From the NCBI GenBank assembly GCA_964505185.1, contig CAZDGM010000006.1, positions 10,944-74,943 on the forward strand: DNA of 64,000 nt. Direction: 5' to 3'. Origin of the DNA: an uncultured Thermodesulfobacteriota bacterium. GTDB taxonomy: Bacteria > Desulfobacterota > JBBIRW01. Shown here piece after piece: positions 1 to 31,620 of the stretch (positions are counted from its first letter, which is position 1; each line of letters begins with the position of its first letter). A model generated the notes under the pieces. It was given only the letters and a program-made list of their open reading frames with translations, was not told where the DNA came from and did no database searches. The position numbers were made by a program, and so were the translations under genes.

Positions 1-1
1 A

Positions 2-916
2 AATGGAGATCAAGCAGGTATTGCCCATATTGAAGGAGAAAGAAATCCTGTTCAAATAAAACTGAGGTTCCCTGTAAGTGAACGTTCATCAATTAATGAT
101 CTCTATCAGATTCCGATTAAGAATAGAGAGAATAGGTTAATACCGCTTGCCGAACTCGTTAAACTGAGAGAGGGCGTAATTGAAAAGACCATATACCATA
201 AGAATTTAAAAAGGGTTGTTTATGTATTTGGAGAAACGGCGGGATCGAGCCCTGTTTATTCTATTATAAAGATGTGGAAATATTTCAGTTCGAATAAGCT
301 TCCTGAAGGGTATAATATAGTGTGGAGAGGAGAGGGGGAATGGAAGATAACTGTTGATGTATTCAGGGATATGGGGCTTGCTTACATATTTGCACTTGCG
401 GGGATATATATTATTCTTGTCGCCCAGACAGGGAGTTTTCTTACTCCACTTCTTATAATGATATCGATTCCACTCACAATGATCGGAATCCTTCCAGGAT
501 TCTCCATACTCAATCTGATCTCTGGGGGAAAGATAGGGCAGTTTGAGAATCCTATATTTTTTACTGCAACAGCTATGATCGGTGTCCTTGCCCTTGCAGG
601 AATAGTTGTTAGAAATTCTGTAATACTTATTGATTTTATTCAGCTTATCAGTGAAAGGGAAAAAGGTAAGATATCACTTATGGATGCAATTATAGAAGCT
701 GGATCCATCAGAATAAGGCCAATATTTTTAACAGCAGCATCAGCTGCACTGGGCTCATGGGTTATAACGCTGGATCCAATATTTTCAGGACTTGCTTGGT
801 CTCTCATATTTGGGGTCTTTGCATCCACAATATTTACAATAGCTGTTGTCCCTGTTGTTTACTATCTTATCTATGGTAAAATTGATTCGGAAGCACATTC
901 AGGAGGTAAATCATGA
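2..916 (+). CDS. RND efflux permease, AcrB/CusA family (C-terminal part, 5' truncated by window edge)
   Basis: The frame is open from position 2 (NGDQAGIAHIEG...LIPLAELVKL...IYHKNLKRVVYV) into the listed ORF 272-916. It has typical RND C-terminal helices and motifs (IPLTMIG, GIVVRNSVILIDF, RIRPIFLT). Confidence 0.92.
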   Translation, partial: NGDQAGIAHIEGERNPVQIKLRFPVSERSSINDLYQIPIKNRENRLIPLAELVKLREGVIEKTIYHKNLKRVVYVFGETAGSSPVYSIIKMWKYFSSNKLPEGYNIVWRGEGEWKITVDVFRDMGLAYIFALAGIYIILVAQTGSFLTPLLIMISIPLTMIGILPGFSILNLISGGKIGQFENPIFFTATAMIGVLALAGIVVRNSVILIDFIQLISEREKGKISLMDAIIEAGSIRIRPIFLTAASAALGSWVITLDPIFSGLAWSLIFGVFASTIFTIAVVPVVYYLIYGKIDSEAHSGGKS

Positions 917-1107
917 ATATGCGTATGAATGAGGCATTGAGACTTATTGCGGGGTCATTCACAGTTCTCAGTGTGGTTTTGAGCATTATACATTCAAAAT
1001 ACTGGTTGTTATTCACAGTATTTGTTGGAATCAATCAGATTCAGTCAGCTTTTAGCGGATGGTGCCCAATGATGAATATTTTGAAAAAGCTTGGTGTTAA
1101 GGAATAA
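913..1107 (+). CDS. DUF2892 (YgaP-like) small membrane protein
   Basis: 64 aa with two hydrophobic segments, RLIAG and QSAFSGWCP motifs; ATGA overlap with the RND stop codon. Confidence 0.85.
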   Translation: MNMRMNEALRLIAGSFTVLSVVLSIIHSKYWLLFTVFVGINQIQSAFSGWCPMMNILKKLGVKE

Positions 1108-1132
1108 AAACTTTTTCCGAAGGAGGGAAGAT

Positions 1133-1339
1133 ATGGATTGTCCATTCTGTAGGAAGGAAATGGAGGTTCAAGGAACATGAAGTGGATCTTTCTGGCGGTG
1201 CCAGGGATGTGGGAGGATATTTTACACAATGGAGGAATTGAAAACCTGCGATATTAAAAATGAAAAAATGATGAAAATAAGGGTGACGGGAATGAATAAA
1301 GGGGGTTTTTATGGCTGGAAAAATTATAATTATAACTGA
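1133..1339 (+). CDS. Candidate small selenoprotein with CxxC-U-CxxC zinc-ribbon-like motif (68 aa if TGA 1178-1180 is read as Sec)
   Basis: RBS AAGGAGGG upstream of ATG 1133. Translation: MDCPFCRKEMEVQGT-U-SGSFWRCQGCGRIFYTMEELKTCDIKNEKMMKIRVTGMNKGGFYGWKNYNYN*. The two CxxC pairs are split by the TGA, a SECIS-like hairpin follows, and the ORF fills the gap between DUF2892 and the MBL gene. Confidence 0.72.
1186..1208 (+). promoter_or_regulatory. Putative bacterial SECIS element for TGA 1178-1180
   Basis: CTGGC-GGT-GCCAG perfect upper stem starting 11 nt after TGA, a U.G pair, a bulged UU and a lower ATC/GAT stem. The G-first loop resembles E. coli fdhF SECIS geometry. Confidence 0.65.
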
Positions 1340-2144
1340 GAATACACTCCCGGGCAAGATTGGCGGTATTTATGCTGAAAATGGATTTTCAGCATATATT
1401 GAAAAGGATGGTTCTCGATTCATATTCGATCCAGGTCCCGCAGGTATATCTGTAACGAATAATGCACCGAGGTTAGGGGTTAATCTTAAAGGCCTTTCAG
1501 GGATCATTCTCAGTCATGGTCATATAGATCATACGGGAGGGCTACCTGCACTTTTGAGAATTACAGGGAGAATCAAGGTCTATGCACATTCAGAGGTATT
1601 TAAAGATAGATATTCATTCCAGGACAACAGGTATGTCTATGTTGGTATGCCATATAAAAAAGAGGCGCTCGAAGGGATGGGAGCAGATTTTGATTTATCG
1701 GACTCATGGAGGGAAATATCACCGGGCGTATACCTTACGGGAGAGATTCCCCGTATAAACAAGATTGAAAAAGGTGATCCTGATCTACGTGTTAAGATTA
1801 ATGGAGAATTCATTGCGGATGATGTTATCGATGATCAGGCCCTTGTCATTGAATCTGATGGATCACTTGTTGTTGTTATTGGATGCGGTCATGCAGGGAT
1901 TATAAATACCATGGAGTATGTAAGAAAAAAGTTGAACATGAAGATTAAGTTATTAATAGGCGGAACGCATCTGGAATATGCAGGAGAAGATCAGTTTAAT
2001 GAAACTGTATCTTATTTGAGAGAATCAGAGGTTGAAAGGATAGGCCTGTGTCATTGTAGTGGATTGAGGGCGGGATCGATGCTAATCAGTAAACTGCAAG
2101 GCAGGGCGTTTTTCTGCCCTGTTGGATTCGCAATAAACATATAG
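1311..2144 (+). CDS. MBL-fold metallo-hydrolase (MJ0448-like / pterin-associated subfamily)
   Basis: ENGFSAYI, FIFDPG, LSHGHIDHTGG (HxHxDH), DDQALV, GCGHAG, GGTHL and CHCSG motifs. Confidence 0.88.
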   Translation: MAGKIIIITENTLPGKIGGIYAENGFSAYIEKDGSRFIFDPGPAGISVTNNAPRLGVNLKGLSGIILSHGHIDHTGGLPALLRITGRIKVYAHSEVFKDRYSFQDNRYVYVGMPYKKEALEGMGADFDLSDSWREISPGVYLTGEIPRINKIEKGDPDLRVKINGEFIADDVIDDQALVIESDGSLVVVIGCGHAGIINTMEYVRKKLNMKIKLLIGGTHLEYAGEDQFNETVSYLRESEVERIGLCHCSGLRAGSMLISKLQGRAFFCPVGFAINI

Positions 2145-2152
2145 GGGTGAGA

Positions 2153-2326
2153 ATGAAAATCCTTCTTAGCTTATTAATAATAATTCTGTGGATCTTTATT
2201 TCCTTTGTTATTCTTCCAAGGTTTGGAATAAGAACTTGAGGTATACATAATATAAGGTGCAGGAGTGGCACCGAAGAGAAAGGGAAAGAAGAGGGTGGGG
2301 ATGTAATTTCAGACAGAAGGGGGTAA
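2153..2326 (+). CDS. Candidate small membrane-anchored selenoprotein (57 aa if TGA 2237-2239 is read as Sec)
   Basis: RBS GGGGTGA upstream of ATG 2153. Translation: MKILLSLLIIILWIFISFVILPRFGIRT-U-GIHNIRCRSGTEEKGKEEGGDVISDRRG*. A hairpin follows the TGA, and the read-through stop lies 3 nt before the next ATG (2330). Confidence 0.62.
2256..2272 (+). promoter_or_regulatory. Putative bacterial SECIS element for TGA 2237-2239
   Basis: GGTGC-A-GGAG-T-G-GCACC: 5-bp GC-rich stem plus an A-U pair with one bulged G, GGAG apical loop about 22 nt after the TGA, in otherwise A-rich sequence. Confidence 0.55.
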
Positions 2327-2329
2327 CCA

Positions 2330-2680
2330 ATGAAGATAACGATTATTATCCAGGATGCACCATACGGATCTGAGAAGATGTGGAATGCCCTCAGACTCAC
2401 GCAGGCATTGATCAGGGACGGGGCACAGATAAATATCTTTCTTCTCGGTGATGCTGTTGTTGCATCCAAAAAGGGGCAGGAAACACCAACAGGATTTTAT
2501 AACATACAGCAGATGCTTTCTGAGATTCGCTCGAAGGGTGCAGTGATAAAGGCATGTATGACATGTTGTAAAGCAAGGGGTATAGGGGAAAAGGATTTGA
2601 TAGATGGAATTGAGATAGGAAAAACAGTAATTGATCTCTCCCGCTGGGTGATGGAGAGCGACAGAGTGCTTACCTTCTGA
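2330..2680 (+). CDS. DsrE/DsrF-like (YchN family) sulfur-relay protein
   Basis: IIIQDAPYGSEKMWNALRL, IFLLGDAV, ACMTCCKARG and SDRVLTF pattern. Confidence 0.88.
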   Translation: MKITIIIQDAPYGSEKMWNALRLTQALIRDGAQINIFLLGDAVVASKKGQETPTGFYNIQQMLSEIRSKGAVIKACMTCCKARGIGEKDLIDGIEIGKTVIDLSRWVMESDRVLTF

Positions 2681-2714
2681 GATAAAGATCGAACCTTATA
2701 TGGGTTTATAAAGG

Positions 2715-3449
2715 ATGCAGCTTAAATATGAAAGCAGGAAGCCACTTTCAGAAATAAGTATTAATGCATCCATATCATGGATCTTAAAGGTCTCAATGCT
2801 CCTTCTCATCCCTTATGCTATCTATTATGGAAAATATATCGAGGCTGGAAGTATTACAGTTTCAATAGTTGTTTCACTTCTGCCAAGCATACTTGCAAGA
2901 AGTTATCAGATTACGCTTCCATGGGAGATCGATCTTCTTATTACTGTTGCCCTTTACCTTCATGTTGGCCTTGGGAGCACTTTTGAGTTCTATGAAAAAT
3001 ACAGATTCTATGACAAATTTCTCCACTTTGTTAATACTGCAATAATATGCATTCTTGCCTTTATACTGGTTTTTTCGCTTCATTTTACTGGAAGGGTTAA
3101 CCTCAATTATTTCTATATGAGCTTCTTTATATTTATATTCGCGCTTGCTATGGGTTCACTCTGGGAGATAGGGGAATTCTTTTTTGACAAAATATTTGGT
3201 ACAAAAACCCAGGACAGTCTCGAGGATACCATGTGGGACCTTATCCTTGATGGCTTCGGAGGGATCTTTATTGGCATGCTGGGATATTTCTATGCAAAGT
3301 ATTCAAAACCTCAGCATAAAAGGAAGGTCGCTGCCCCTGTGAGGGAATTGATAAAGAAGGGGTGGTTCAGGAAGGAACGGGCAGAGGAATCCCTGATGAA
3401 GTGGATTAAGAGGAGAAAGAGTGCCTTAAAGAGAATAAGGAAAATTTAA
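2715..3449 (+). CDS. Integral membrane protein, DUF2238/YjdF-like
   Basis: Multiple TM helices with YLHVGLG, FYDKFLHF, LWEIGEF and DTMWDL motifs; basic C-terminal tail. Confidence 0.6.
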   Translation: MQLKYESRKPLSEISINASISWILKVSMLLLIPYAIYYGKYIEAGSITVSIVVSLLPSILARSYQITLPWEIDLLITVALYLHVGLGSTFEFYEKYRFYDKFLHFVNTAIICILAFILVFSLHFTGRVNLNYFYMSFFIFIFALAMGSLWEIGEFFFDKIFGTKTQDSLEDTMWDLILDGFGGIFIGMLGYFYAKYSKPQHKRKVAAPVRELIKKGWFRKERAEESLMKWIKRRKSALKRIRKI

Positions 3450-3494
3450 CATAATATATATTATCAGACTTTTTTAAAAAGAGCTCACGGTTTA

Positions 3495-4112
3495 ATGAAA
3501 AATAAAAAGATTTTATCAGAATTGAAAATTCCTATAATCCTGTTTATTATCCTTACCCTTTTGCAATTTTTTAAATTCGCAATTGCTATTGATAAATATG
3601 TTGAAGGAATCATATATCCACTTTTTAGTGGTAAGCTGGTTTTTATCTTTTCCATCCTGTCATTTACAGCGAAACTGAAGGTAGCCTCGATAATTACAGT
3701 TATTCTCATATTGATACTCTTTTATAAGGGTAACCATCGTGGATGGGTTGCAATTGGATTATTATTCTTTTTTTCAATAATATTTGAGGTAATATTAAAG
3801 GAAATCGTAATAAAACCCCGTCCTGATCTGTCACTATACAGATCAACTCTTGAACCTATGACAAAATCCTATTCATACCCCAGTGGCCATTGTATAAGGG
3901 CTGTATTAATTTATGGAGCCCTATATGAGATTATAAAGAGATATTTTTATGAGGGGATATCAAAGTTTTTCTATTCTTACCTTTTTACCACATTCATAAT
4001 TCTTATATGCCTAAGCAGGGTTGTTATAGGGGCACATTGGTTTACTGATTTATTAGGGGGTGCATTGGCCGGATGGATATTTTTTGTAATATTTCGAAAT
4101 AATTATCTGTAA
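3495..4112 (+). CDS. PAP2-family phosphatase
   Basis: KxxxxxPRP, SYPSGH and SRVVIGAHW catalytic motifs. Confidence 0.92.
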   Translation: MKNKKILSELKIPIILFIILTLLQFFKFAIAIDKYVEGIIYPLFSGKLVFIFSILSFTAKLKVASIITVILILILFYKGNHRGWVAIGLLFFFSIIFEVILKEIVIKPRPDLSLYRSTLEPMTKSYSYPSGHCIRAVLIYGALYEIIKRYFYEGISKFFYSYLFTTFIILICLSRVVIGAHWFTDLLGGALAGWIFFVIFRNNYL

Positions 4113-4193
4113 AATATAAATTAAAAGCTTAATTTTTGCCAAAAAAGTTAATATTAAATATTAGATTTAGGAAATAAATATTGGATTTTAAAT

Positions 4194-4874
4194 ATGAAAA
4201 AAGCTGTCTGCTTATTAAGTGGGGGTCTTGACAGTTCAGTTTGTTCATATAAGGCAAAAAGTGATGGAAACAGGGTCTATTGTATCACCTTTGATTACAA
4301 TCAGAGACACAGGAAGGAAATAAGGGCTGCAAGGAGAATCGCAGAGATCCTGGGTGCTGAAAAGCATTTAATAATAAAGATCAACCTTTCGAGTATCGGT
4401 GGTAGTGCACTTACTGACAGATCCATTGAGGTCCCTGATGCATTCAGTTACAACAGAGAGGAGATTCCGATTACCTATGTTCCTATGAGAAATACAATAT
4501 TCCTATCAATTGCTGCATCATGGGCAGAAGTGATCGGAGCTAATAGTATATATATTGGTGCAAATGCGGTGGATTTTTCCGGATATCCTGACTGTAGGCC
4601 TGAATTTTATCAAGTAATGGCAGAATGTTTCAGAGTCGGTTCAAAAAGAGGGGTTTCAGGGGATGCTATTGAAATAAAAACCCCTTTAATAAATATGAGC
4701 AAGAAGGAGATCGTAATCCTTGGCATGGAGCTCAATGTGCCTTTTCACCTCACCTGGAGCTGTTACAGAGGTGGTAGATTCCATTGCGGTAGATGTGATA
4801 GTTGTTTATTAAGATTGAAAGGTTTTAAAGAAGCTGGCATCAAAGACCCTGTGAAATATGAGGGGGCTCGGTGA
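4194..4874 (+). CDS. queC: 7-cyano-7-deazaguanine synthase
   Basis: SGGLDS, YNQRH, TYVPMRN, YPDCRPEF, TWSCY and CGRCDSC motifs. Confidence 0.96.
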   Translation: MKKAVCLLSGGLDSSVCSYKAKSDGNRVYCITFDYNQRHRKEIRAARRIAEILGAEKHLIIKINLSSIGGSALTDRSIEVPDAFSYNREEIPITYVPMRNTIFLSIAASWAEVIGANSIYIGANAVDFSGYPDCRPEFYQVMAECFRVGSKRGVSGDAIEIKTPLINMSKKEIVILGMELNVPFHLTWSCYRGGRFHCGRCDSCLLRLKGFKEAGIKDPVKYEGAR

Positions 4875-12888: not shown

Positions 12889-14301
12889 TCAGAAAGCAAT
12901 GGTATGAATGGAATCATTCTCTAACTCATCGATCTTTGTTTTTACCTGGATAAATTTATCAAGCGAGTTGTCAAATGGATCATTCATGATAATCTTTCCT
13001 GCCCCAATCTTTTCAAGATTCACATTTGACCAGTCTATTGCAGAAATAAGCCCCTTTTTCTTGAGATATTTTACAATCTCTCCCCTCACACGGGCCCTTG
13101 TGTCCTGCGGGGGTTGATAAATTGCCCTTTCAATTTCCTTATCACTGAAAAATTTTATTACCAAGCCAGCATCTTCAAGCCTGTGATAGATCCCAGCTTC
13201 TGGATCTATATTATGGTAGGATATATCGAGCTGTAGAAGTCTGAAGCCATTGCCAGCCATTCCATTTTTTTTCTTATATTTATCGATCAGATTAAGCTTT
13301 ATAGCCCAGTCAATCCTGTCTGCAAGTCCCATGGGATCGGTCTTTAGCGTTTCAATAAGCTTTTTCCAATCTTCAAGTATTCCTTTAGATTCCTGATCTA
13401 ATCCTTTCTGAATATAAAATTTTTCCGCATATTCAATATATATTTCTTGGATTTCAAGGGGTGTATAATACCTCCCATCATTCATTTCAATTTTGACTTT
13501 GCATGTTAGATCATCGTTTATATCACGTAGTGCTTTCAGTGGATTCCTTATTTCAATATTCTTTTTGAAATATCCATTCTCTACCATATCGAGCACGATC
13601 CCCATTGTTCCCAGTTTTATATATGTGGTAAAGGGAGACATGTTGGAATCACTAAGAACTATATGGAGCCTTCTGTAAAGAAGGGGATCGGAGAGCGGTT
13701 CCTCTCGTGTATTTATAATGGGTCTGTCCCCCGTTGTTGATCCAGAGTAGACCTTTTCAATAAAATTCGCCCTCTGGGAGATTTTAAATCTTACATTGCC
13801 TCCATTCATATGGAGCCTTCCTGCTCCAGTAAATACAGTTCTCGTTACAAGGAATGGTATAATTTTCTCTGCCAGGTATGAAAAATTAACATCCTGTCTT
13901 ATCAGATAATTTTCATGACATCCGTATGTGTTCCCTATGGAGTCAGTATTATTTTTAAATATCTGAAATTTACCTATTAACCCTTCTTTTTCAAAAGATT
14001 CCTGAACTTTTTGGGCAATATTGTTCAATATCCTTTCTCCGGCCACATCATAGAGAACTGCATCCCTTACACTTGAACACTCAGGCGTTCCATATTCTGG
14101 ATGGCAGCCCGTGTCCTGATAAAGCCTCCCTCCATTTTCGAGGAATATGTTATAAATAGTTTCATTGGGGCAAAGGCTTTCAAAAAGAGCCTTTATTAGA
14201 TATTCACTGAACAGCGCCCTTTTTCCTGCAGGAGAAGAAAAGGGGCTCACATAATAGATTGCAAATTCCGTCTCTAATCCATAAATCCTTTTTTCATGCA
14301 T
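12889..14301 (-). CDS. pafA: Pup/UBact-protein ligase, PafA family; start reassigned to ATG 14301
   Basis: RIYGLETEF, FLENGGRLYQDTGCHPEYGTPEC, FKNNTDSIGNTYGCHENYL, RRLHIVLSDSN, LDISYHNI and TRARVRG match PafA rather than Dop. The listed N-terminal 36 aa overlap a terminator. Confidence 0.88.
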   Translation of the reverse strand: MHEKRIYGLETEFAIYYVSPFSSPAGKRALFSEYLIKALFESLCPNETIYNIFLENGGRLYQDTGCHPEYGTPECSSVRDAVLYDVAGERILNNIAQKVQESFEKEGLIGKFQIFKNNTDSIGNTYGCHENYLIRQDVNFSYLAEKIIPFLVTRTVFTGAGRLHMNGGNVRFKISQRANFIEKVYSGSTTGDRPIINTREEPLSDPLLYRRLHIVLSDSNMSPFTTYIKLGTMGIVLDMVENGYFKKNIEIRNPLKALRDINDDLTCKVKIEMNDGRYYTPLEIQEIYIEYAEKFYIQKGLDQESKGILEDWKKLIETLKTDPMGLADRIDWAIKLNLIDKYKKKNGMAGNGFRLLQLDISYHNIDPEAGIYHRLEDAGLVIKFFSDKEIERAIYQPPQDTRARVRGEIVKYLKKKGLISAIDWSNVNLEKIGAGKIIMNDPFDNSLDKFIQVKTKIDELENDSIHTIAF

Positions 14302-14380
14302 GATGAAACCCACCAATTGGAAATGCATAAATTGTGCCATTGAATTTTGGTATAGATAGTCGGTATTATGGATAAAAATA

Positions 14381-14406
14381 AAAAAGGAGGGAAAACCCTC
14401 CTTTTT
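14381..14406 (-). terminator. Rho-independent terminator after ppsA (potentially bidirectional)
   Basis: AAAAAGGAGGG-AAAA-CCCTCCTTTTT perfect inverted repeat with T tracts, about 40 nt downstream of the ppsA stop. Confidence 0.85.
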
Positions 14407-14443
14407 CAATTTTATAATTTTTCAAAATTGAAACCTGCCCTCT

Positions 14444-17400
14444 TTAGCTCATCCTCCTTTCATTTTCGACCATTTCAAAGATTATATTAATAAATTTTTC
14501 AACAAGATATTCCTTATGGGCTTTATCGAATAGAGCAAGTAATCCATCAATTTTGGCTGGATCCGAAAGAATAGGCACGGTGTTACCAAGACTTGCCTGT
14601 TGATTTATCCACATCTTTGAATTCCTGAGTAATGCAGAGACAGTAAGTGATCCAGCAGTTCTAATATCCACAAATTTTATTCTTGGACCCTCCAGGGCCT
14701 TTAAATCTACATCCTCCACCTTCCAGCAAAGGGCAACACGCTCGCCACCCGGATAATCGATCCACGTAGGTCTTGAAAGGTGATTCAAAAGGGTTGCACA
14801 AATAGCTTTATTATTATTATTTAAACAGGTTGCCTTCGGGACATTTTTATCAACCCATTTGCCCGCCTTCTCCCTCAGCCAGCTTGCATCCACACCCATT
14901 TTAACCTTTTGTGGACCCCTTTCCCCTCCATCCTCTACATATACAAGTCTCTTCTTTTCCTTCTTTGCAATCTCTGCGAAATATACAAGGATTCTTGTAT
15001 TAACAACGGTATCCGTATTGAGACTCATTGAGTCAATACCGACTTCAACAAGGAATGACGCTATTGATGGAAAATCGCTGGGCGCCTGTCCGCATATTCC
15101 AACCTTTCTTCTTGGCTTATGTACATGTGCCTTTTTTATGAGATCATCAAGAAGAATCCTCACTGCGTCATTCCTTTCGTCATAAAGATACTGGACAAGC
15201 TCAGAATCCCTGTCAAGACCCAGTGCAAGCTGGGTAAGGTCATTTGTACCTATAGAGAATCCATCAAAATACTTGGAAAATTCTGATGCAAGGATTACAT
15301 TGCTTGGAATTTCTGCCATAACATATATCTCAAGGCCATTTTCCCCTTGAATAAGACCATACTTTTTCATGGTCTCAATAACCTTCTTTCCCTCCTCCAC
15401 AGTTCTACAGAATGGGACCATAACCTTTACATTAACAAGACCCATCTCATCACGAACTTTTTTGATCGCTTTGCATTCAAGTGCAAATGCCCTTTCATAA
15501 AGCTGATGATAATACCTGCTTGCCCCCCTCCACCCAATCATCGGATTGCTTTCCTTTGGCTCATAGAATTTTCCGCCTATGAGATTTGCATACTCATTGG
15601 TTTTGAAATCCGAGAAACGTACGATCACATCCCCTTTTACCTTTCCACGCTCTTCACGATAAAAGGCAGCAGCAATACATCCTATCCCTCTTGCAAGCTC
15701 ATCAACGAAGAAATCATCCTTGTTTATATAACCCTTTGTTCTTTCATCTATAAGTTCTATAATCTTTTTGATTTCCTCAATCTCATTCTCTTTCTCCCTC
15801 TTTGCTACATATTCATCTATGATTTCAACCCCAAGCTCTGCCCTATCCTTCTCCTCACTTGACTGTAATTCATATTGCCACACCTTTTCCTTCAGTTTTT
15901 CATAATCCAGCAGGGCAAGTGGATGTATACCTATATAGGAGTTTATTATGAACTCCTTCCTGGCAAGTCCAACCCCATCATTTGGAAATCTTGCCTGATG
16001 GAAGGCCTGCTCAGGAATCCCTGCATTCATCATAATATCTGTTTTGGGATCAGGGATTTCATCAACTGCCATCCTGTCTATATGAAAAGGTAAAAGCCCT
16101 TTTAGAACCCTTCCAACTCCTGTAGAACAATCAACAGTAACCTCCATCCCTGTTTTTAACACCTCTGTTGCCCTTTCTGTTCCAATTATGCATGGGATAC
16201 CAAGCTCCCTTGATATGATGGCTGCATGACATGTTCTTCCGCCCCTGTTTGTAATGATTGCGGATGCCATTTTCATAATAGGTTCCCAATCAGGATCGGT
16301 CATATCTGTAACGAGGACCTCACCGAGCTTAAATTCACCGATCCTTTTCGCGCTATCTATCACATTTACACGACCTTTACCGATTTTAGTGCCAACAGGC
16401 ATCCCCCTTAAAAGTATATCCTCTTCTTCTACTTCACGGTCCAGTATGTATGTTTCGACCTCAACCTCATGCGCTTTAACAGTCTCTGGTCTTGCCTGAA
16501 CAACAAAAATCTTTCCAGTTCCAACATTTATCCCATCACCGTCTTTTGCCCACTCCACATCCATTGGTCTTTTATAGTGATCCTCAATTATGCAAACCCA
16601 TCGTGCAAGTTCGAGTATCTCATCGTCATTTAAAATAAATTTTTCTCTTTCATCCTTGAATACCTGAACCTTTTTTGTTGTATGCTCAGCATCATCACTA
16701 TATACAAGTTTAAATTGTTTGTCTCCGAGTTTTTTGGATATAATTGGCCTAAAACCCTTTTTTAATGTTGGTTTATGAACATAGAATTCATCAGGATTAA
16801 CCTGTCCCTGAACCACCATCTCTCCAAGGCCGTAGGATCCTGTAATATAAACAACATCCCTGAAGCCAGATTCTGTATCTATGGAAAATGCAACACCAGC
16901 ACATGCCATATCACTTCTTACCATTTTTTGAACACAAACCGATAAACTCACGCTGAAGTGATCAAACCCTTTATCTATCCTGTAAGATATTGCCCTGTTG
17001 TTAAAAAGAGATGCATAGCATCTCTTACATGCATCAACAACGTTGTATTCGCCTTTGATATTAAGATAGGTATCCTGGATCCCAGCAAAGGATGCCTCCG
17101 GTATATCCTCGGCTGTTGCGCTTGATCTGACTGCAACATCAATATCCTTAGAACCATATTTTTCGCACATCCTTCTGTATGCCTTAACGATCTCTTCCTC
17201 AAGCCTATCTGGCATATCCGTTTTTATAATCAGATCCCTTACCATCTTCCCCTTTGAAGATAAGTCCTCCATATCGTGGGGGTCTATATCACTGAGAATC
17301 TCCTTTATCCTGTCCTGTATCCCTGTTTCATTAAGAAAATATCTATATGCATATGAGGTAGTTGCAAATCCCCACGGAATCAATACACCTTTTTTGCTAA

Positions 17401-17512
17401 GGTTTCTCATCATCTCCCCAAGAGAAGCATTTTTACCACCCACAAGCTCGAGATCCTCCATTCCCACCTCATCCAGCCATAAAATGAACCTTTGACTTTT
17501 GCGTTTTGGCAT
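14444..17512 (-). CDS. ppsA: Phosphoenolpyruvate synthase (pyruvate,water dikinase) with extra C-terminal domain
   Basis: VGGKNASLGEM, AVRSSATAED, QARPETV, GGRTCHAAI (phospho-His), DFKTNEY, NPMIGWRGASRY and GTNDLTQL motifs; 1022 aa. Confidence 0.95.
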   Translation of the reverse strand: MPKRKSQRFILWLDEVGMEDLELVGGKNASLGEMMRNLSKKGVLIPWGFATTSYAYRYFLNETGIQDRIKEILSDIDPHDMEDLSSKGKMVRDLIIKTDMPDRLEEEIVKAYRRMCEKYGSKDIDVAVRSSATAEDIPEASFAGIQDTYLNIKGEYNVVDACKRCYASLFNNRAISYRIDKGFDHFSVSLSVCVQKMVRSDMACAGVAFSIDTESGFRDVVYITGSYGLGEMVVQGQVNPDEFYVHKPTLKKGFRPIISKKLGDKQFKLVYSDDAEHTTKKVQVFKDEREKFILNDDEILELARWVCIIEDHYKRPMDVEWAKDGDGINVGTGKIFVVQARPETVKAHEVEVETYILDREVEEEDILLRGMPVGTKIGKGRVNVIDSAKRIGEFKLGEVLVTDMTDPDWEPIMKMASAIITNRGGRTCHAAIISRELGIPCIIGTERATEVLKTGMEVTVDCSTGVGRVLKGLLPFHIDRMAVDEIPDPKTDIMMNAGIPEQAFHQARFPNDGVGLARKEFIINSYIGIHPLALLDYEKLKEKVWQYELQSSEEKDRAELGVEIIDEYVAKREKENEIEEIKKIIELIDERTKGYINKDDFFVDELARGIGCIAAAFYREERGKVKGDVIVRFSDFKTNEYANLIGGKFYEPKESNPMIGWRGASRYYHQLYERAFALECKAIKKVRDEMGLVNVKVMVPFCRTVEEGKKVIETMKKYGLIQGENGLEIYVMAEIPSNVILASEFSKYFDGFSIGTNDLTQLALGLDRDSELVQYLYDERNDAVRILLDDLIKKAHVHKPRRKVGICGQAPSDFPSIASFLVEVGIDSMSLNTDTVVNTRILVYFAEIAKKEKKRLVYVEDGGERGPQKVKMGVDASWLREKAGKWVDKNVPKATCLNNNNKAICATLLNHLSRPTWIDYPGGERVALCWKVEDVDLKALEGPRIKFVDIRTAGSLTVSALLRNSKMWINQQASLGNTVPILSDPAKIDGLLALFDKAHKEYLVEKFINIIFEMVENERRMS

Positions 17513-26987: not shown

Positions 26988-27362
26988 TTATTCTCTAATG
27001 TAAAGAGCACCTGTGGTGCAGATTTTCACACACTGTGGATCACTGCCACACAGATCACAATGGAAAACCTTTTCATTAAATGCAAATATTGCTTTATGAG
27101 GACATTTATTAACTGTTTCACATGGCCATATGAATTCCCGTAACATCATTTTTTTATCAACATCCAATCCATCCAGACAGAACATCTTGTTTTCATTACA
27201 TTGAAGGCAAACATGCGGTACATTCACCCCTTTTCCAAGATCATCCTTAATTACCCTGATGGCGGAGGTAATTGGATTTATGTAGCCGAAATGATAAAGT
27301 GAACAGACAATCTCACACTGATGACATCCTGTGCATTTTTCCCTTCTTGTAAGAACCCTCAT
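26988..27362 (-). CDS. 4Fe-4S dicluster protein (AOR partner)
   Basis: CTGCHQCEIVCS and CDLCGSDPQCVKIC motifs; overlaps the AOR stop. Confidence 0.88.
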   Translation of the reverse strand: MRVLTRREKCTGCHQCEIVCSLYHFGYINPITSAIRVIKDDLGKGVNVPHVCLQCNENKMFCLDGLDVDKKMMLREFIWPCETVNKCPHKAIFAFNEKVFHCDLCGSDPQCVKICTTGALYIRE

Positions 27363-29227
27363 TGAATCAATTCTCTCAACCCGAGTTTCTCAAGCTGAGA
27401 AGCTGTTGGAATACCCCTTTCATCCCAGCCATGCAAGCTGTAATACTCATCGAGCATCTGCTGGAACTTACCCTTATCAATAAAAGCCCCCTTTGCAGGT
27501 CCATCCTTAACAGGTTCCTCGAAATAGATCCATGGTAATGTATCGTCCTTCCTGTCCATTCCTTCCCTTACAAGATACATCCTTTCTGTTGTGTATATCC
27601 TCTCACCAATTTCAAAAACATCATCCCTGCTTACATTAAATCCTGTTGCAAGGTAAATAAGATTTGCAAATTCATCAAATTTTGGTGCATGAGGGCTGCT
27701 GAATGCAGTTAAAAATCTACACAATCCAAGTGCATCAGTGACAGCATGAAGCAGTTCATGCCACCATACCATCCTTGCTTTCCCCTCATAAGATCTATAG
27801 TCAGGCGAAACCTTACCCCCATATAATTTCTCAAGAAGTGAAGGTGGGAGATTTAGAACATCATTAGATGGACGACTTCTCATATGATCACATCCCCTTG
27901 TCGCCGTTGCAAGTCCCAGGGCAAAGGATGGAACAATACGCTCATCCGTAACCTCAAGCGGCATGTTTTTTATACTGTAGGCATATCTCTTCGCATTTTC
28001 GCCAAGGACTTCGGCCTTCCAGAATCCCTCTGCAAGGAGATCCCCAAAACCTTCCCTGTATGCAACATCCCTTATGAGCCTATCCGTACTTTCTATGTTT
28101 CCCCAGTCAAGCGGATAGCCAAGATCTTTTTCATTGATCACTCCCTTTTCATATAACTCCATTGCCCAACCTATATAGGCGCCCATACTCATTGCATCAA
28201 TTCCGTAGAGATTGCACAAATCTGTAAAATAAACAGCCCTTTCAAGATCAGAAATTCCAATATTTGCACTGAGAGGACCTAATGCACCATAGTCAGGACC
28301 CTCGCCGTTAAATTCTTTTCCATCAATATTAACTATATGTTTATGTCTGCAATGAACAGGACAGGAGCTACATGCAACCATTCCCTTTGACAACCTTTCG
28401 AGATTCTCGGCAGAGAGTTTATTTCCTTCTTCACCCATTGATGTTTGCTGATGATTCTTTACACTCAGCCACCCGCCTTCATTTGCATAACGAAGCAAAA
28501 GTGGCGTTCCATATCTTCCCAGTGCCTGACACCAGGCCCTTTTCATAACCTGTTGCTGAAGCTCAAAGCAATAGGATAAGAATTCTTTCGGTTTAAAAAC
28601 GGAAAGACCCTTTGTTCCAATGACTGCGATTGCCTTCAGATTTTTTGAACCCATAACAGCGCCAATGCCTGTTCTTGCTGCCATATTCTTGCGACCGGTA
28701 ACGATCCCTGAGAACCTGACAAGCCTTTCTCCTGCAGGACCTATACATGCAATCTTCAACCTTTCAATTCCCTCATCTTCCCTGATAATCTTTTGCGTCT
28801 CAAGTGTATCTTTTCCCCATATATGCTGTGCATCCTTTATCTCGATATCATCATCCTTTATAAGTATATAAACAGGCTTTTTACTCCTTCCCCTGATAAC
28901 AACATGACTGTATCCTGTATAGTTTAGCTCGGCTCCGAAATCACCTCCTATGTTAGAATCTCCGAGGAATCGATTTTCAGGAGAGCGGGCAGTTATATTC
29001 ATTCTTCCCGCCCCGGGCGCCATTGTTCCTGTAAGAAGACCTGCTCCAAGTATTACAGGATTTTCAGGTGAAAAGGGATCTGTATCTCGTCCTGTAAAAT
29101 GATAAAGGAAATAGGTATTTATACCCCTTCCTCCGAGGAACTTTCTCCTGAGCTCAAGACTTATTTCTTCCTTTTTTATTTCTCCAGAATCAAGGTTAAT
29201 GTGAAGAAGCTTTCTGTTGAGAGGCAA
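27359..29227 (-). CDS. Aldehyde:ferredoxin oxidoreductase family (W/Mo-bis-pterin)
   Basis: GGRG, ACIGPAGE, GAVMGSKNLKA, CxxCPVHC, EGPDY, RGCDH and DALGLC motifs; TTG start. Confidence 0.93.
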   Translation of the reverse strand: MPLNRKLLHINLDSGEIKKEEISLELRRKFLGGRGINTYFLYHFTGRDTDPFSPENPVILGAGLLTGTMAPGAGRMNITARSPENRFLGDSNIGGDFGAELNYTGYSHVVIRGRSKKPVYILIKDDDIEIKDAQHIWGKDTLETQKIIREDEGIERLKIACIGPAGERLVRFSGIVTGRKNMAARTGIGAVMGSKNLKAIAVIGTKGLSVFKPKEFLSYCFELQQQVMKRAWCQALGRYGTPLLLRYANEGGWLSVKNHQQTSMGEEGNKLSAENLERLSKGMVACSSCPVHCRHKHIVNIDGKEFNGEGPDYGALGPLSANIGISDLERAVYFTDLCNLYGIDAMSMGAYIGWAMELYEKGVINEKDLGYPLDWGNIESTDRLIRDVAYREGFGDLLAEGFWKAEVLGENAKRYAYSIKNMPLEVTDERIVPSFALGLATATRGCDHMRSRPSNDVLNLPPSLLEKLYGGKVSPDYRSYEGKARMVWWHELLHAVTDALGLCRFLTAFSSPHAPKFDEFANLIYLATGFNVSRDDVFEIGERIYTTERMYLVREGMDRKDDTLPWIYFEEPVKDGPAKGAFIDKGKFQQMLDEYYSLHGWDERGIPTASQLEKLGLRELIQ

Positions 29228-29247: not shown

Positions 29248-30417
29248 TCAGCGAAAGGCATCAAATTCAGTTATCTTCTGTCCAAGGATAAGAATATGAA
29301 TATCATGTGTACCCTCATATGTTTTTACCGTTTCCAGATTACACATATGTCTCATTACAGGATACTCATCAACAATCCCATTTGCTGCAAGTATATCCCT
29401 TGCCATCCGTGCACATTCAAGAGCCATATTCACATTATTCATCTTCGCCATTGATATCTGGGCGTAGTTGGCCTTTCCCTCATCCTTAAGTCTCCCAAGA
29501 CGATATGATAGTAATTGAGCTTTTGTTATTTCTGTTAACATCCACACAAGCTTCTGCTGGGCGAGTTGCTTTGATGCAAGAGGTTTTCCAAATACGATAC
29601 GGTTTTTTGAATAGTTAAGGGCAACCTCATAACATTCCATTGCTACACCGATTGCTCCCCAGGAGATCCCATATCTTGCCTGACTCAAACACATAAGGGC
29701 ATTTTTAAGACCGATTGTACCAGGAAGGAGGTTCTCTTCTGGTATCCTGCAGTCTTCAAACACAAGTTCGGATGTTATTGATGCCCTTAAGGAGAGCTTA
29801 CCCTTGATATCGTTTGCTTTAAATCCAGGGGTTCCCTTCTCTACAAGAAATCCCCTTATTGTTCCATCATCCGTCTTTGCCCATACGACAGCAACATCTG
29901 CTATTGATCCATTTGTTATCCACATCTTTGTTCCGTTTATGATATAACTTTTACCATCCTTCTTAGCCCTCGTTCTCATTCCTCCTGGATCAGAACCGAA
30001 ATCCGGTTCTGTTAGACCAAAACAACCAATTGCCTCTCCTTTCGCAAGCTTTGGTAACCAGTAACTTTTTTGTTCCTCTGATCCAAATGTGTATATGGGA
30101 TACATCACGAGTGAGCCCTGGACAGAAACAAAGCTCCTAATCGAACTATCCCCTCTTTCGAGCTCCTGCATAACAAGACCATAGGCCACGTTATTCATTC
30201 CAGCACAACCATAACCATGAAGATTTGCACCCAGAAGTCCGAGCTTTGCAATCTCTGGAATAAGATGGAGAGGGAATTGACACTTTTGATTGTATTCCTC
30301 GATTATCGGTTTTACCCTATCATTTACAAATTGCCTCACCACATCCCTTGTGATTCTTTCCTCTTCAGTTAACAGCTCATCAATTTGGTAAAAATCGACA
30401 CCCCTGAGTGACGACAT
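29248..30417 (-). CDS. gcdH: Glutaryl-CoA dehydrogenase-like acyl-CoA dehydrogenase
   Basis: ELERGDS, CFGLTEPDFGSDP, KMWITNG, KLSLRASIT, QARYGISWG and TYEGTHDIH motifs. Confidence 0.88.
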   Translation of the reverse strand: MSSLRGVDFYQIDELLTEEERITRDVVRQFVNDRVKPIIEEYNQKCQFPLHLIPEIAKLGLLGANLHGYGCAGMNNVAYGLVMQELERGDSSIRSFVSVQGSLVMYPIYTFGSEEQKSYWLPKLAKGEAIGCFGLTEPDFGSDPGGMRTRAKKDGKSYIINGTKMWITNGSIADVAVVWAKTDDGTIRGFLVEKGTPGFKANDIKGKLSLRASITSELVFEDCRIPEENLLPGTIGLKNALMCLSQARYGISWGAIGVAMECYEVALNYSKNRIVFGKPLASKQLAQQKLVWMLTEITKAQLLSYRLGRLKDEGKANYAQISMAKMNNVNMALECARMARDILAANGIVDEYPVMRHMCNLETVKTYEGTHDIHILILGQKITEFDAFR

Positions 30418-30429
30418 CTTATCTCTCCT

Positions 30430-31620
30430 TCATGTCTCTCTTCTTATAACCATGGCCATTGTGACACCTCCACCCCCGCAAATACCAGCAACACCGATTT
30501 CACCATTTATTCTCTTCAGTGCATAATATAGTGTTATAAGAATTCTCGCTCCGCTCATCCCTGTTGGATGTCCAAGGGCTATTGCCCCACCATGTATGTT
30601 AAGCCTCCCTCTGTCCCATTTAAGAACCCTTTCATTTGCAAGAATCTGTGCTGCAAACGCCTCATTGACCTCGATCAGGTCTGCATCGTTGAGGGTCATA
30701 CCTGCCTTTTTTAATGCCTGTGGAATTGAGACAGAGGGACCTTCACCCATAAGCGATGGCTCCACTGCTGCTGATGCATAAGAGATAACGGAAAAAAGAG
30801 GCTTCAGTCCCTTTGCCCTCGCAATATCCCTTGTTGTCAGGATTAGGGCAGCAGCTCCATCGGACATTCCGCATGCATTTCCCGCAGTGATGGTTCCATC
30901 CTTTCTGAATACGGGTTTTAACTTTGAAAGGGCTTCAAGGGATGTGTTCATCCTTACTGATTCATCCTTTGAGAATATTATATTCTGCCTCAATTCCTTG
31001 GAATACACCTCTATAGGAATAATCTCTTCGTCAAAATAGCCAAGCTTTTGCGCTTGAGATGCTTTCATATGACTTTCAAAGGCAAACTGATCCTGTTCCT
31101 CCCTTGAAATACCATATTTCTTCACCAGATTTTCTGCTGTTTCCCCCATACCCATGTTACACAGCGGATCAATTGTATCATTCCATCCATCCATAAGTAT
31201 CTTATCCCCCATTCTGAAGCCTTCCCATCTCACATTTTTGAGGATATAGGGTATAGTGCTCATGCTTTCCATTCCGCCTGCAATAACTATTTTTGCATCA
31301 CCAAGCATTATTGATTGAATCGCCATCTGAATACATTTCATCCCTGAGGGGCATGCCTTATTTATGGTTGTGCATGGGATGGTAACAGGGATCCCTGCCA
31401 GAACAGATGCCGTTCTTGCAGGATTTGGGCCATTCCCTGCCTGTCTTGTATTACCGAGGAGTACCTCATCAACTTCTGCGGGCTTAATGTCAGTTTTCTC
31501 AAGTACCCCCTTCATTACAGAGGCCCCTAGTTCATAAACCATTACATCACGCAGTGTTCCACCAAATTTTCCAATGGCAGTTCTTCCTGCACCAACTATC
31601 ACCACATCGTTTATCTTCAT
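30430..31620 (-). CDS. Acetyl-CoA acyltransferase (thiolase)
   Basis: NKACPSG (catalytic Cys), NEAFA, GGAIALGHP and ICGGGG motifs. Confidence 0.94.
   Translation of the reverse strand: MKINDVVIVGAGRTAIGKFGGTLRDVMVYELGASVMKGVLEKTDIKPAEVDEVLLGNTRQAGNGPNPARTASVLAGIPVTIPCTTINKACPSGMKCIQMAIQSIMLGDAKIVIAGGMESMSTIPYILKNVRWEGFRMGDKILMDGWNDTIDPLCNMGMGETAENLVKKYGISREEQDQFAFESHMKASQAQKLGYFDEEIIPIEVYSKELRQNIIFSKDESVRMNTSLEALSKLKPVFRKDGTITAGNACGMSDGAAALILTTRDIARAKGLKPLFSVISYASAAVEPSLMGEGPSVSIPQALKKAGMTLNDADLIEVNEAFAAQILANERVLKWDRGRLNIHGGAIALGHPTGMSGARILITLYYALKRINGEIGVAGICGGGGVTMAMVIRRET

Follow-up and report, generated by a model that had tools for sequence, protein, structure and literature searches.

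Two small genes with in-frame UGA codons, probable selenoprotein genes, in an RND efflux operon of an uncultured Thermodesulfobacteriota bacterium

Two very short open reading frames (ORFs), each interrupted by an in-frame TGA that is followed by a hairpin, lie at the start of a 64,000-nucleotide stretch of DNA, hereafter the window, from an uncultured Thermodesulfobacteriota bacterium (assembly GCA_964505185.1, contig CAZDGM010000006.1, positions 10,944 to 74,943, forward strand). Are they selenoprotein genes, and do they belong with the efflux pump beside which they are encoded? An earlier note, made from the sequence of the window alone, had described positions 2-2680 as six packed genes on one strand, coding for an RND permease, a DUF2892 protein, two micro-selenoproteins (here ORFA and ORFB), a metallo-beta-lactamase (MBL) fold protein, and a DsrE-like protein. 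Reading of the sequence and of the ORF listing over positions 1-4200 confirmed the six genes at these places. The best explanation, which is reasonably likely, is that they form the distal part of a tripartite RND operon with thiol/selenol accessory genes, in which ORFA and ORFB are read through as selenocysteine (Sec). The UGA of each is most probably read through, as Sec, by way of a hairpin located 16-21 nt downstream. ORFB is genomically tied to a clade of RND pumps, to DUF2892, and to MBL proteins of the COG1237 type, and we infer from these partners that a thiol-reactive toxicant may be handled at the cytoplasmic face of the pump.

ORFB (2153-2326, + strand, with TAA at 2324-2326) has 57 codons and would encode a single-pass membrane selenoprotein, MKILLSLLIIILWIFISFVILPRFGIRT-U-GIHNIRCRSGTEEK..., whose putative Sec codon is the TGA at 2237-2239. 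Searches with the read-through sequences of ORFB and ORFA gave no matches in a word-indexed database. The ORFB family was reached through its neighbors, by a search of metagenomes with the MBL protein and then a search of GTDB genomes with DUF2892 (L-numbers hereafter designate the compared loci from other genomes or metagenomes). The metagenomic locus L163, whose MBL protein is 53% identical to that of the window, carries an RND gene, then MEWLSQIWPIATMVGLWILLQILLRRAGVPT-TGA-GVQGCSSSTGEKPEYTEEKP, followed by genes for OsmC, DUF2892, a cysteine-rich protein of 121 residues, and the MBL protein. The search with the DUF2892 alignment retrieved seven Methylomirabilota/NC10 loci with this same arrangement. 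An alignment-seeded protein search then yielded 72 ORFB clusters at 90% identity, almost all of 31 residues with the ending ...RKAG[VL]PT, and an exhaustive HMMER search gave 23 representatives at 50% identity; taken together, almost all of these end exactly at ...AG[VL]PT. Where such entries are named, NCBI records included, they are called 'hypothetical protein'. They are family members cut at the TGA by gene callers. Most members come from Methylomirabilota, a phylum reported to be extremely rich in selenoproteins (PMC13188914).

Members of this family share a layout of 50-57 residues, with an acidic N-terminus, one transmembrane (TM) helix, basic residues, a U...C motif and a short charged tail; the motif after the helix can be written R/K-x-G-x-x-[TS]-U-G-x(2-5)-C. 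TGA occupies the aligned site in all 16 distinct family DNA sequences. A family profile hidden Markov model (HMM) built from members of the Methylomirabilota type only had the window ORFB as its sole significant match among 1708 six-frame segments (E = 3e-7; next 0.05), and a strict version of the motif, run over about 3 Mb of loci, returned family members as its only TGA matches. No model of Pfam or of NCBIfam release 20 matches any of four ORFB variants. The 119-family table of prokaryotic selenoproteins in a 2026 review (PMC13188914) holds no ORFB-like entry, and mentions neither RND nor membrane micro-proteins. A literature search for selenoproteins combined with RND or efflux gave nothing relevant, although ORFB may have been described in recent work on selenoprotein neighborhoods. 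The ORFB family is thus a new element with a tie to RND pumps, absent from Pfam, NCBIfam, and the 2026 catalogue.

This tie is apparent from the gene order. In about 15 independent loci, ORFB comes immediately after an RND gene. L324 has two small genes in between, one of them coding for an FmdB zinc ribbon, and the one exception among the loci with upstream sequence is L325, where a gene on the opposite strand precedes ORFB. Downstream of ORFB are found OsmC and/or DUF2892 and/or a cysteine-rich protein of 102-121 residues, and then an MBL protein of 280 residues. The order in the lineage of the window is RND-DUF2892-ORFA-MBL-ORFB-DsrE, and this exact succession of six genes is found in that lineage only. 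The conserved core consists of RND, ORFB, DUF2892, and MBL, often with OsmC. DsrE, which had been counted as a member of the module, falls outside this core and is lineage-specific. Since the same partners recur in a different order in another phylum, a functional link is indicated rather than inherited adjacency. The prediction that the small ORFs would accompany these genes elsewhere has held up, for ORFB with RND, DUF2892, and MBL in many genomes and for ORFA with RND-DUF2892 in L331.

The partners themselves have been followed separately. The DUF2892/YgaP-like gene (913-1107, +; PF11127, 43 bits) encodes a two-helix membrane protein with a conserved cysteine in ...WCPM.... Homologues with 52-68% identity were found in 79 GTDB loci, 29 of which carry this RND clade, with DUF2892 directly downstream of the pump in 26. 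An ArsR-type regulator lies nearby in 23 of the 79 loci, sometimes with DsrE, DUF302, or methyltransferase genes. The nearest DUF2892 after that of the close relative L083 is in L244, where RND-DUF2892 is present and ORFA, ORFB, and MBL are absent. The MBL-fold protein (1311-2144, +; PF00753, 55 bits) is of the COG1237 type with an HGHIDHTGG motif, and orthologues with 48-53% identity follow ORFB or DUF2892 in 11 other loci. Its relatives in GTDB representative genomes (no more than 41% identity) have none of these neighbors, which rules out the MBL gene alone as a marker of the module. The nearest solved structures are the uncharacterized 2P4Z and TM1679, both COG1237. Against NCBIfam, there is no match to persulfide dioxygenases (ETHE1/Blh/CstB), and a weak one to GloB (glyoxalase II) at 20 bits. 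The DsrE/YchN-like protein (2330-2680, +) has an ACMTCC motif and scores 74 bits against PF02635 (gathering threshold 22.7). Its closest structure is E. coli YchN (1JX7, E = 9e-27), and it stays below the TusD/DsrE equivalog cut-off (38.6 vs 89). DsrE homologues with 55-58% identity lie near DUF2892 together with ArsR in L262, L297, and L299.

Several other small proteins recur in these neighborhoods. The cysteine-rich protein (CVDCEC...CLGCEPCEP; L163:3562-3927, and also in L276, L309, L320, and L327) is encoded between DUF2892 and MBL, the slot held in the window by ORFA; its only match, a weak one of 35 bits, is with an MtrA-like NCBIfam model and covers that model's N-terminal part. FmdB zinc-ribbon genes (TIGR02605 / PF09723) are found beside ORFB, ORFA, or DUF2892 clusters (L324:343-588, L331:4132-4371, L260, L292, and L301), and a Sec form of the FmdB family is listed in the selenoprotein review (PMC13188914). 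In Verrucomicrobiota and Lentisphaerae, PG0541, DUF6132, and DUF302 occupy the slot between RND and DUF2892. DUF6132, with a G-C-R-T-G-T-C motif (L260:5297-5470, L273:5265-5438, and L301:5253-5426), takes the place that ORFB and OsmC have in Methylomirabilota. Homology between ORFB and DUF6132 was rejected, as three ORFB variants gave no match to Pfam PF19628 and hhalign returned a probability of 1%. By analogy of position and layout, DUF6132 may nevertheless be a cysteine analogue of ORFB. Like ORFB, this small membrane protein sits between this RND clade and DUF2892, and carries a pair of chalcogen residues, four positions apart, after a hydrophobic helix; unlike ORFB, it has two helices, a G-C-x4-C motif, and no Sec.

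What kind of pump is it? The window holds the C-terminal 304 residues of the permease (2-916, +; PF00873 ACR_tran, 132 bits), whose gene starts upstream of the window, and this part is 97% identical to its counterpart in L083. Alignment of the pump with E. coli AcrB and CusA places VDD in TM4 as in AcrB, an arginine at the position of AcrB K940 (...GIVVRNSVILI...), and an equivalent of R971; the latter two fall within the part encoded in the window. The CusA triad Met573/Met623/Met672 is replaced by I/V, Q/V, and V, and E939/K984 by R and M/I. NCBIfam gives 454 bits for the multidrug type against 273 for CusA/CzcA (cut-off 701), with no cut-off reached. Among solved structures, those nearest to the permease are of MexK and TriC, and ZneA follows closely. 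By its aligned residues, the pump has a proton relay like that of AcrB and no CusA-type Cu/Ag binding site, and is not of the heavy-metal type.

These features bear on the rival explanation that survives best, namely that the cluster confers resistance to soft metals or metalloids (Hg, As, Cu/Ag, Cd), with the selenol/thiol micro-proteins acting as chaperones that feed the pump under ArsR/SmtB control. Regulators of the ArsR/SmtB type do occur in related clusters, zinc-ribbon and cysteine-rich partners recur, the membrane-fusion protein (MFP) resembles CzcB/NccB in part, and the permease is almost as close to ZneA as it is to the multidrug pumps. Among metal transporters, moreover, MerT-like proteins, P-type ATPases, and the SO_0444 family are known to include Sec forms (PMC13188914). 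However, the AcrB-type VDD/basic relay and the absence of the CusA methionine triad and of E939/K984 weaken the option of a thiophilic metal that the earlier note had left open, as does the higher score of the multidrug model. OsmC, DsrE/YchN, and COG1237 MBL genes are also atypical of metal resistance, and members of the ArsR family sense persulfides and sulfite as well, a BigR model match being found among the ArsR-type regulators of related clusters. A metal(loid) pump is therefore unlikely, and it is the ArsR regulators and the cysteine-rich partners that keep this reading alive.

A second alternative concerns ORFB itself. It holds that the gene codes for a membrane peptide of 28-31 residues ending at the UGA, and that the hairpin is an RNA element acting on mRNA stability or on translation of the next gene. 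Every database entry is indeed truncated and no cysteine form is known, the tail is poorly conserved, with a conserved E-E-K whose codons double as the Shine-Dalgarno sequence for the next gene, and in L083 the flanks of the TGA are altered and the hairpin is weakened. The sequence after the TGA nevertheless behaves as coding. Over the 13 sequences of the Methylomirabilota type, the entropy at codon positions 1/2/3 amounts to 0.20/0.31/1.10 in the two codons that follow the TGA (G, V/I), a wobble pattern also shown by the undisputed coding part of ORFB upstream (0.66/0.23/0.99). The distance from the TGA to the cysteine codon is 12, 15, or 18 nt, so that the spacing changes are all multiples of three and the cysteine always stays in frame (0, +3, +6). 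Three loci have tails ending in ...PEKKS, in which TAA, TAG, or TGA occupies one and the same codon after synonymous TCG/TCC and AAG/AAA changes. In eight loci where OsmC follows, the second ORFB stop overlaps the OsmC start as ATGA, including in a locus with an extra codon. In L332, a deletion fuses TG with G, giving the reading PT-W-CSSST... through to the usual second stop. Wobble, in-frame indels, interchange of stop codons, and ATGA coupling thus argue together for translation through the UGA, which is conserved in frame. The place and loop of the hairpin also fit a bacterial Sec insertion sequence (bSECIS). Termination at the UGA as the whole story is accordingly quite unlikely. The short peptide is probably produced in either case, since termination usually proceeds in competition with Sec insertion.

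The deletion in L332 (L332:1035-1181) is a 12-nt in-frame one that removes U-G-V-x-x and leaves ...LPT-W-CSSSTEEK..., still with ATGA shared with OsmC. L333 is another TGG variant, whose downstream part is degenerate. These two are the only longer ORFB forms, and both have TGG.

The hairpin segment of ORFB is under a different constraint from the rest of the tail. The segment TGCTCGTCGAGCAC shows no variation, synonymous sites included, and the entropy of TGC-TCG-TCG-AGC-AC is 0.08/0.08/0.23. Both serine codon families are used in it, giving the palindrome GUGCUC-GUC-GAGCAC, and the sole amino-acid change, S to V, falls in the loop. In these Methylomirabilota-type sequences, the hairpin has a stem of 6-7 bp, a GUC or GGU loop, a distance of about 17-20 nt from the UGA, and a free energy of -9 to -17 kcal/mol. 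That of the window (2256-2272), GGUGC-AGGAGUG-GCACC, has the cysteine codon in its 5' arm, a 5-bp stem, and an AGGAGUG loop with the apical loop 21 nt after the UGA (-7.8 kcal/mol, z = -3.5); the outer stem GGUGC/GCACC is common to it and to the Methylomirabilota type, GGUGCUC-GUC-GAGCACC. For the ORFB hairpin, 92.9% of cells are paired, a share that drops to 25-45% with slid partners. Read on the opposite strand, the 2256-2272 hairpin of the window together with TTATATTATG gives a terminator-like score, which is probably meaningless, as there is no minus-strand gene near.

Coupling of ORFB to the genes that follow it suggests a third alternative, in which ORFB is mainly a regulatory leader whose Sec read-through couples translation of OsmC, DUF2892, and MBL (DsrE in the window) to the supply of selenium. 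Such a role would fit the eight loci in which ATGA is shared with OsmC, and the window, where 3 nt separate ORFB from DsrE. However, the TM helix, a tryptophan, the R/K-A-G-x-P-T motif and the cysteine are conserved as protein, and in L309, L323, and L327, ORFB stops well before the next gene, so that a mainly regulatory role appears improbable.

ORFA (1133-1339, +) is a different case, as it is related to a described family. This 68-codon gene would encode a zinc-ribbon selenoprotein, MDCPFCRKEMEVQGT-U-SGSFWRCQGCGRIF..., with a conserved core of about 45 residues and its putative Sec codon at 1178-1180. Its only meaningful family match is NCBIfam NF041197, named 'dual CXXC motif small (seleno)protein', and the match spans model positions 1-46 for the window, 1-28 for L083, and 1-33 for L331. 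A pattern scan of the compared loci turned up a cysteine member of this family, L138:108-275 (59.5 bits), with which ORFA aligns gaplessly: C3-C6, U16, and C23-C26 of ORFA are collinear with C3-C6, C16, and C23-C26 of L138, so that the Sec sits between two CxxC knuckles in the Sec/Cys column of the family. Replacing U by X rather than by C at this position costs about 8 bits against the model. NF041197 corresponds to OS_HP3 (Zhang & Gladyshev 2007) and to 'DW' (deep-Sep 2025), and the 2026 review (PMC13188914) lists it under two names, OS_HP3 (from an Olavius symbiont) and 'hypothetical protein DW' (GxU motif). The G-T-U of ORFA fits the latter. Features common to ORFA and this family are small size, CxxC spacing, the Sec column, a G-[RK]-I-F that follows the second knuckle, and a SECIS hairpin immediately downstream of the UGA. 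The context differs, as ORFA goes with RND-DUF2892 in the window and in L331, whereas the member L138 has a multihaem cytochrome as neighbor. Unlike ORFB, ORFA can thus not be called undescribed.

The ORFA hairpin, UUUCUGGC-GGU-GCCAGGGA (1189-1207), has an 8-bp stem and its apical loop 16 nt after the UGA. In the ORFA of L083, the TGA and the surrounding 34 nt are identical, and most changes elsewhere are synonymous; a G-to-A substitution makes U-A out of a U.G pair in the stem, and CQEC out of CQGC. Conservation covers only about the first 45 residues, the tail being frame-shifted between the window and L083. A homologue, ...CPACGGHLRPVPT-TGA-GMLLWRCQGCGRIM..., was found in L331, a Thermoanaerobaculum metagenome-assembled genome (MAG) of the Acidobacteriota, within the cluster RND-DUF2892-PG0541-ArsR-ORFA-FmdB-DUF302. 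In this GC-rich genome, the hairpin core CUGGC-GGU-GCCAG is identical, on the codons W-R-C-Q-G, and the base of the stem is altered on both sides in a compensatory manner (UUU...GGA to GCU...GGC). Across L083 and L331, pairs at the base of the stem have thus changed from U-A to G-C and from U.G to C-G or U-A. L331 is the one locus confirmed among the matches listed by a genome scan seeded with the ORFA alignment, so that the distribution and the Sec/Cys ratio of this subfamily are poorly sampled. UGA is kept in the window, L083, and L331, and cysteine takes its place in L138. Because of the cysteine column of L138, the TGA in L083 and L331, the compensated hairpin of L331, and the recurrence of RND-DUF2892, ORFA is, as judged from these comparisons, very probably a real selenoprotein gene. 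It is a divergent relative of NF041197, belonging to a subfamily that scores below the cut-off and is devoid of the C-terminal motif.

That the six genes are mere neighbors and the two TGA-plus-hairpin ORFs coincidental is scarcely credible: the six-gene order is indeed confined to this lineage and the MBL relatives of no more than 41% identity lack these neighbors, but RND, ORFB, DUF2892, and MBL recur reordered in another phylum and ORFA recurs with RND-DUF2892 in a third, the strict ORFB pattern found only family members as TGA matches in about 3 Mb, and the synteny contradicts it. The argument of the earlier note against coincidence is borne out by this recurrence, and in the comparison across genomes both micro-ORFs behave as real selenoprotein genes, as had been proposed.

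How strong, then, is the case for Sec decoding, and what weighs against it? The published bSECIS model asks for a loop of 3-9 nt, a G among the first two loop positions, a minimum of 4 bp in the stem, a distance of 16-37 nt to the UGA, and a minimum free energy no higher than -7.5 kcal/mol, and both hairpins fit it. At -7.8 kcal/mol, however, that of the window ORFB is marginal, and so is its L083 counterpart, with -7.0 kcal/mol and a C.A mismatch. Of the 2623 TGA trinucleotides in the window, 157 (6%), ORFA and ORFB among them, pass a loose form of this model, and when the hairpin alone is required to reach -7.5 kcal/mol, 18 (0.7%) pass, including ORFA and not ORFB. Hairpins by themselves are therefore weak evidence, and the non-chance pattern rests on the comparison across genomes. 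In the ORFB hairpin, two pairs have changed on both sides, which amounts to slight covariation, and neither hairpin has an Rfam match. In L083, the hydrophobic N-terminal part of ORFB and the TGA are kept, with one in-frame codon insertion; the TGA is flanked by S-U-I instead of T-U-G, and the sequence downstream of it is far more diverged than the neighbor genes and contains a 33-nt insertion. No cysteine homologue of ORFB was found in the word-indexed search or in an exhaustive HMMER search with an N-terminal profile over 1.84 billion representatives, whereas most accepted selenoprotein families do have them; the expected interchange of cysteine and Sec has thus been found for ORFA, in L138, and not for ORFB. 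For ORFA, the score against NF041197 (24.0 bits with U read as C, 15.8 bits with X at the Sec position) does not reach the cut-off of 40, as is also true of the copies in L083 (20.3 bits) and L331 (23.1), and the C-terminal segment of the model (positions about 47-53, ...RPCNRV) is missing. Finally, no sel genes, tRNA-Sec, other selenoprotein genes, or other TGA-split genes were found in the 64-kb window, so that Sec decoding in this organism is deduced from ORFA and ORFB only. The only other long pair of ORFs joined by a TGA, at 29248-31620 (-), has 396 and 389 residues in one frame, with TGA and 12 nt between, and probably represents two adjacent paralogous genes. Taking all of this into account, it remains highly likely that ORFB is a selenoprotein.

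The extent of the operon can be seen in L083, a MAG named 'Deltaproteobacteria bacterium SLF170214_bin_359', which was found by a QueC-anchored search and matches the window collinearly, with 91% of nucleotides identical. Upstream of the part equivalent to the window, it carries the end of a gene for an outer-membrane factor (OEP), a gene for a P-II-like, transporter-associated protein of the PG0541 family (40 bits, cut-off 45), an MFP gene, and the full RND gene. Positions 2-2680 of the window are therefore the tail of a tripartite efflux operon, that is, the 3' part of OEP-PG0541-MFP-RND followed by DUF2892, ORFA, MBL, ORFB, and DsrE. Full sets with PF02321, MFP domains and PF00873 are likewise present in L323 and L328. 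Of the upstream genes that the earlier note had anticipated, the outer-membrane factor and the MFP are in place in L083; as for a regulator, none was seen in the 4 kb upstream there, and the ArsR type is found in related clusters only. Both the MFP (L083:670-1735) and the RND (L083:1745-4979) of L083 appear as two overlapping ORFs, with frameshifts near 1121-1197 and 2166-2221, which reflects either assembly error (coverage of about 9x) or decay of the pump in that genome.

Within the window, the described spacings are exact: ATGA at 913-916, a 29-nt overlap between ORFA and MBL, and gaps of 8 nt before ORFB and 3 nt before DsrE. Neither overlap is conserved, since in L083 the DUF2892 start corresponds to position 919 and thus does not form ATGA with the RND gene, and beyond ...IKNEK the ORFA tail is thrown by a 1-nt indel into another frame, which ends before the MBL start. 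Three in-frame ATGs (913, 919, and 925) are available for DUF2892 in the window, and equivalents of 919 and 925 only in L083; from these start codons, 919 is possibly the true start, and the ATGA overlap with the RND stop may be spurious. No promoter or terminator signal between the genes rose above shuffle expectation, and none of the intervals between them holds a terminator-like site on the + strand. Downstream on this strand follow genes for a DUF2238-like membrane protein (2715-3449) and a PAP2 phosphatase (3495-4112), which are possibly co-transcribed. Their membership of the module is doubtful: they are kept only in the close relatives L081-L083, and are not found in other ORFB or DUF2892 loci.

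If the pump, DUF2892, and ORFB work together, the following arrangement can be proposed. By the positive-inside rule, the U-x(4-6)-C tail of ORFB would lie on the cytoplasmic face of the inner membrane, hugging it, and the conserved WCP cysteine of DUF2892, which comes after its second helix, would be on the same side. Together they would make up a selenol/thiol site anchored in the membrane, with a selenenyl-sulfide as a possible intermediate of its cycle. This site may bind or sense a thiol-reactive toxicant and pass the toxicant, or a redox signal, to the AcrB-type pump, while the soluble partners (MBL, OsmC or DsrE/YchN, and the zinc-ribbon selenoprotein) may process the toxicant in the cytoplasm. 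The toxicant would most likely be a reactive sulfur or selenium species, an organic electrophile, or a peroxide rather than a free metal cation, given the set of partners and the AcrB-type relay. Some support for reactive sulfur comes from Azospira suillum, in which a DUF2892 gene and an operon of RND and SQR are induced by H2S (PMC5358917). A more specific version, put forward tentatively, is that ORFB peptides are dedicated Sec-bearing subunits of RND pumps that form with DUF2892 a selenol/thiol gate on the cytoplasmic side, which captures or senses a reactive sulfur or selenium species or some other soft electrophile and couples it to efflux, that DUF6132 is the cysteine version where Sec is not used for this purpose, and that read-through may tie the downstream detoxifying enzymes to the supply of selenium.

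There are partial precedents for such an arrangement. AcrZ is a small single-pass protein that binds the RND permease AcrB in E. coli. Like AcrZ, ORFB is a protein of about 50 residues with a single helix and is genetically tied to an AcrB-type RND permease; unlike AcrZ, to which it has no sequence similarity, it carries Sec-x(4-6)-Cys and is encoded inside the pump operon. Selenoproteins are also known in transport, including a MerT-like mercuric transporter, SO_0444 Cu/Zn efflux, a P-type ATPase, and SaoP/SaoB/SaoX (PMC13188914). Here as there, Sec is in or beside a membrane transport machine and presumably binds a soft ligand. In those systems, however, Sec is part of the transporter or binding protein itself, with no RND and no free-standing micro-protein, and ORFB gave no match to the NCBIfam models of these selenoproteins. 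A third comparison is with the sulfur-stress clusters governed by ArsR/BigR, which combine YgaP/DUF2892 with DsrE/TusA-like carriers and with persulfide dioxygenases of the MBL fold. DUF2892, a DsrE/YchN-like protein, and an MBL-fold protein are common to them and to the window cluster; the latter differs by its COG1237-type MBL, and by having no rhodanese, TauE, or SQR gene.

Other genes of the window bear on the host. A Pup-ligase family gene (12889-14409, -; PF03136, 452 bits), unusual for a MAG labelled Deltaproteobacteria, adjoins an ORF of 1022 residues (14444-17512, -), and the QueC of the source organism has no relative above 57% identity except that of L083; the Pup-ligase gene and the isolated QueC point to a deep-branching lineage. 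Genes for an aldehyde:ferredoxin oxidoreductase (27359-29227), a sigma-54 activator with CBS and PAS domains (34375-36501), and a malic enzyme with an N-terminal ACT domain (51494-52927), all on the minus strand, are consistent with an anaerobe.

The ORFB family probably represents selenoproteins that annotation has missed, the public copies seen being truncated 'hypothetical proteins' of 31 residues. A motif for their re-annotation is available in the form of a TM helix followed by R/K-A-G-x-P-T-U-G-x(2-5)-C, with a hairpin on the cysteine codon. No link between Sec and RND efflux pumps was found in the literature searched, and if ORFB is a subunit of the pump, it would bring a selenoprotein into an RND transporter for the first time. 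If ORFB works with the pump, it would also offer a handle on the substrate of this widespread RND-DUF2892 clade, on the roles of DUF2892, DUF6132, and the COG1237 MBL proteins, and on why Methylomirabilota hold so many selenoproteins.

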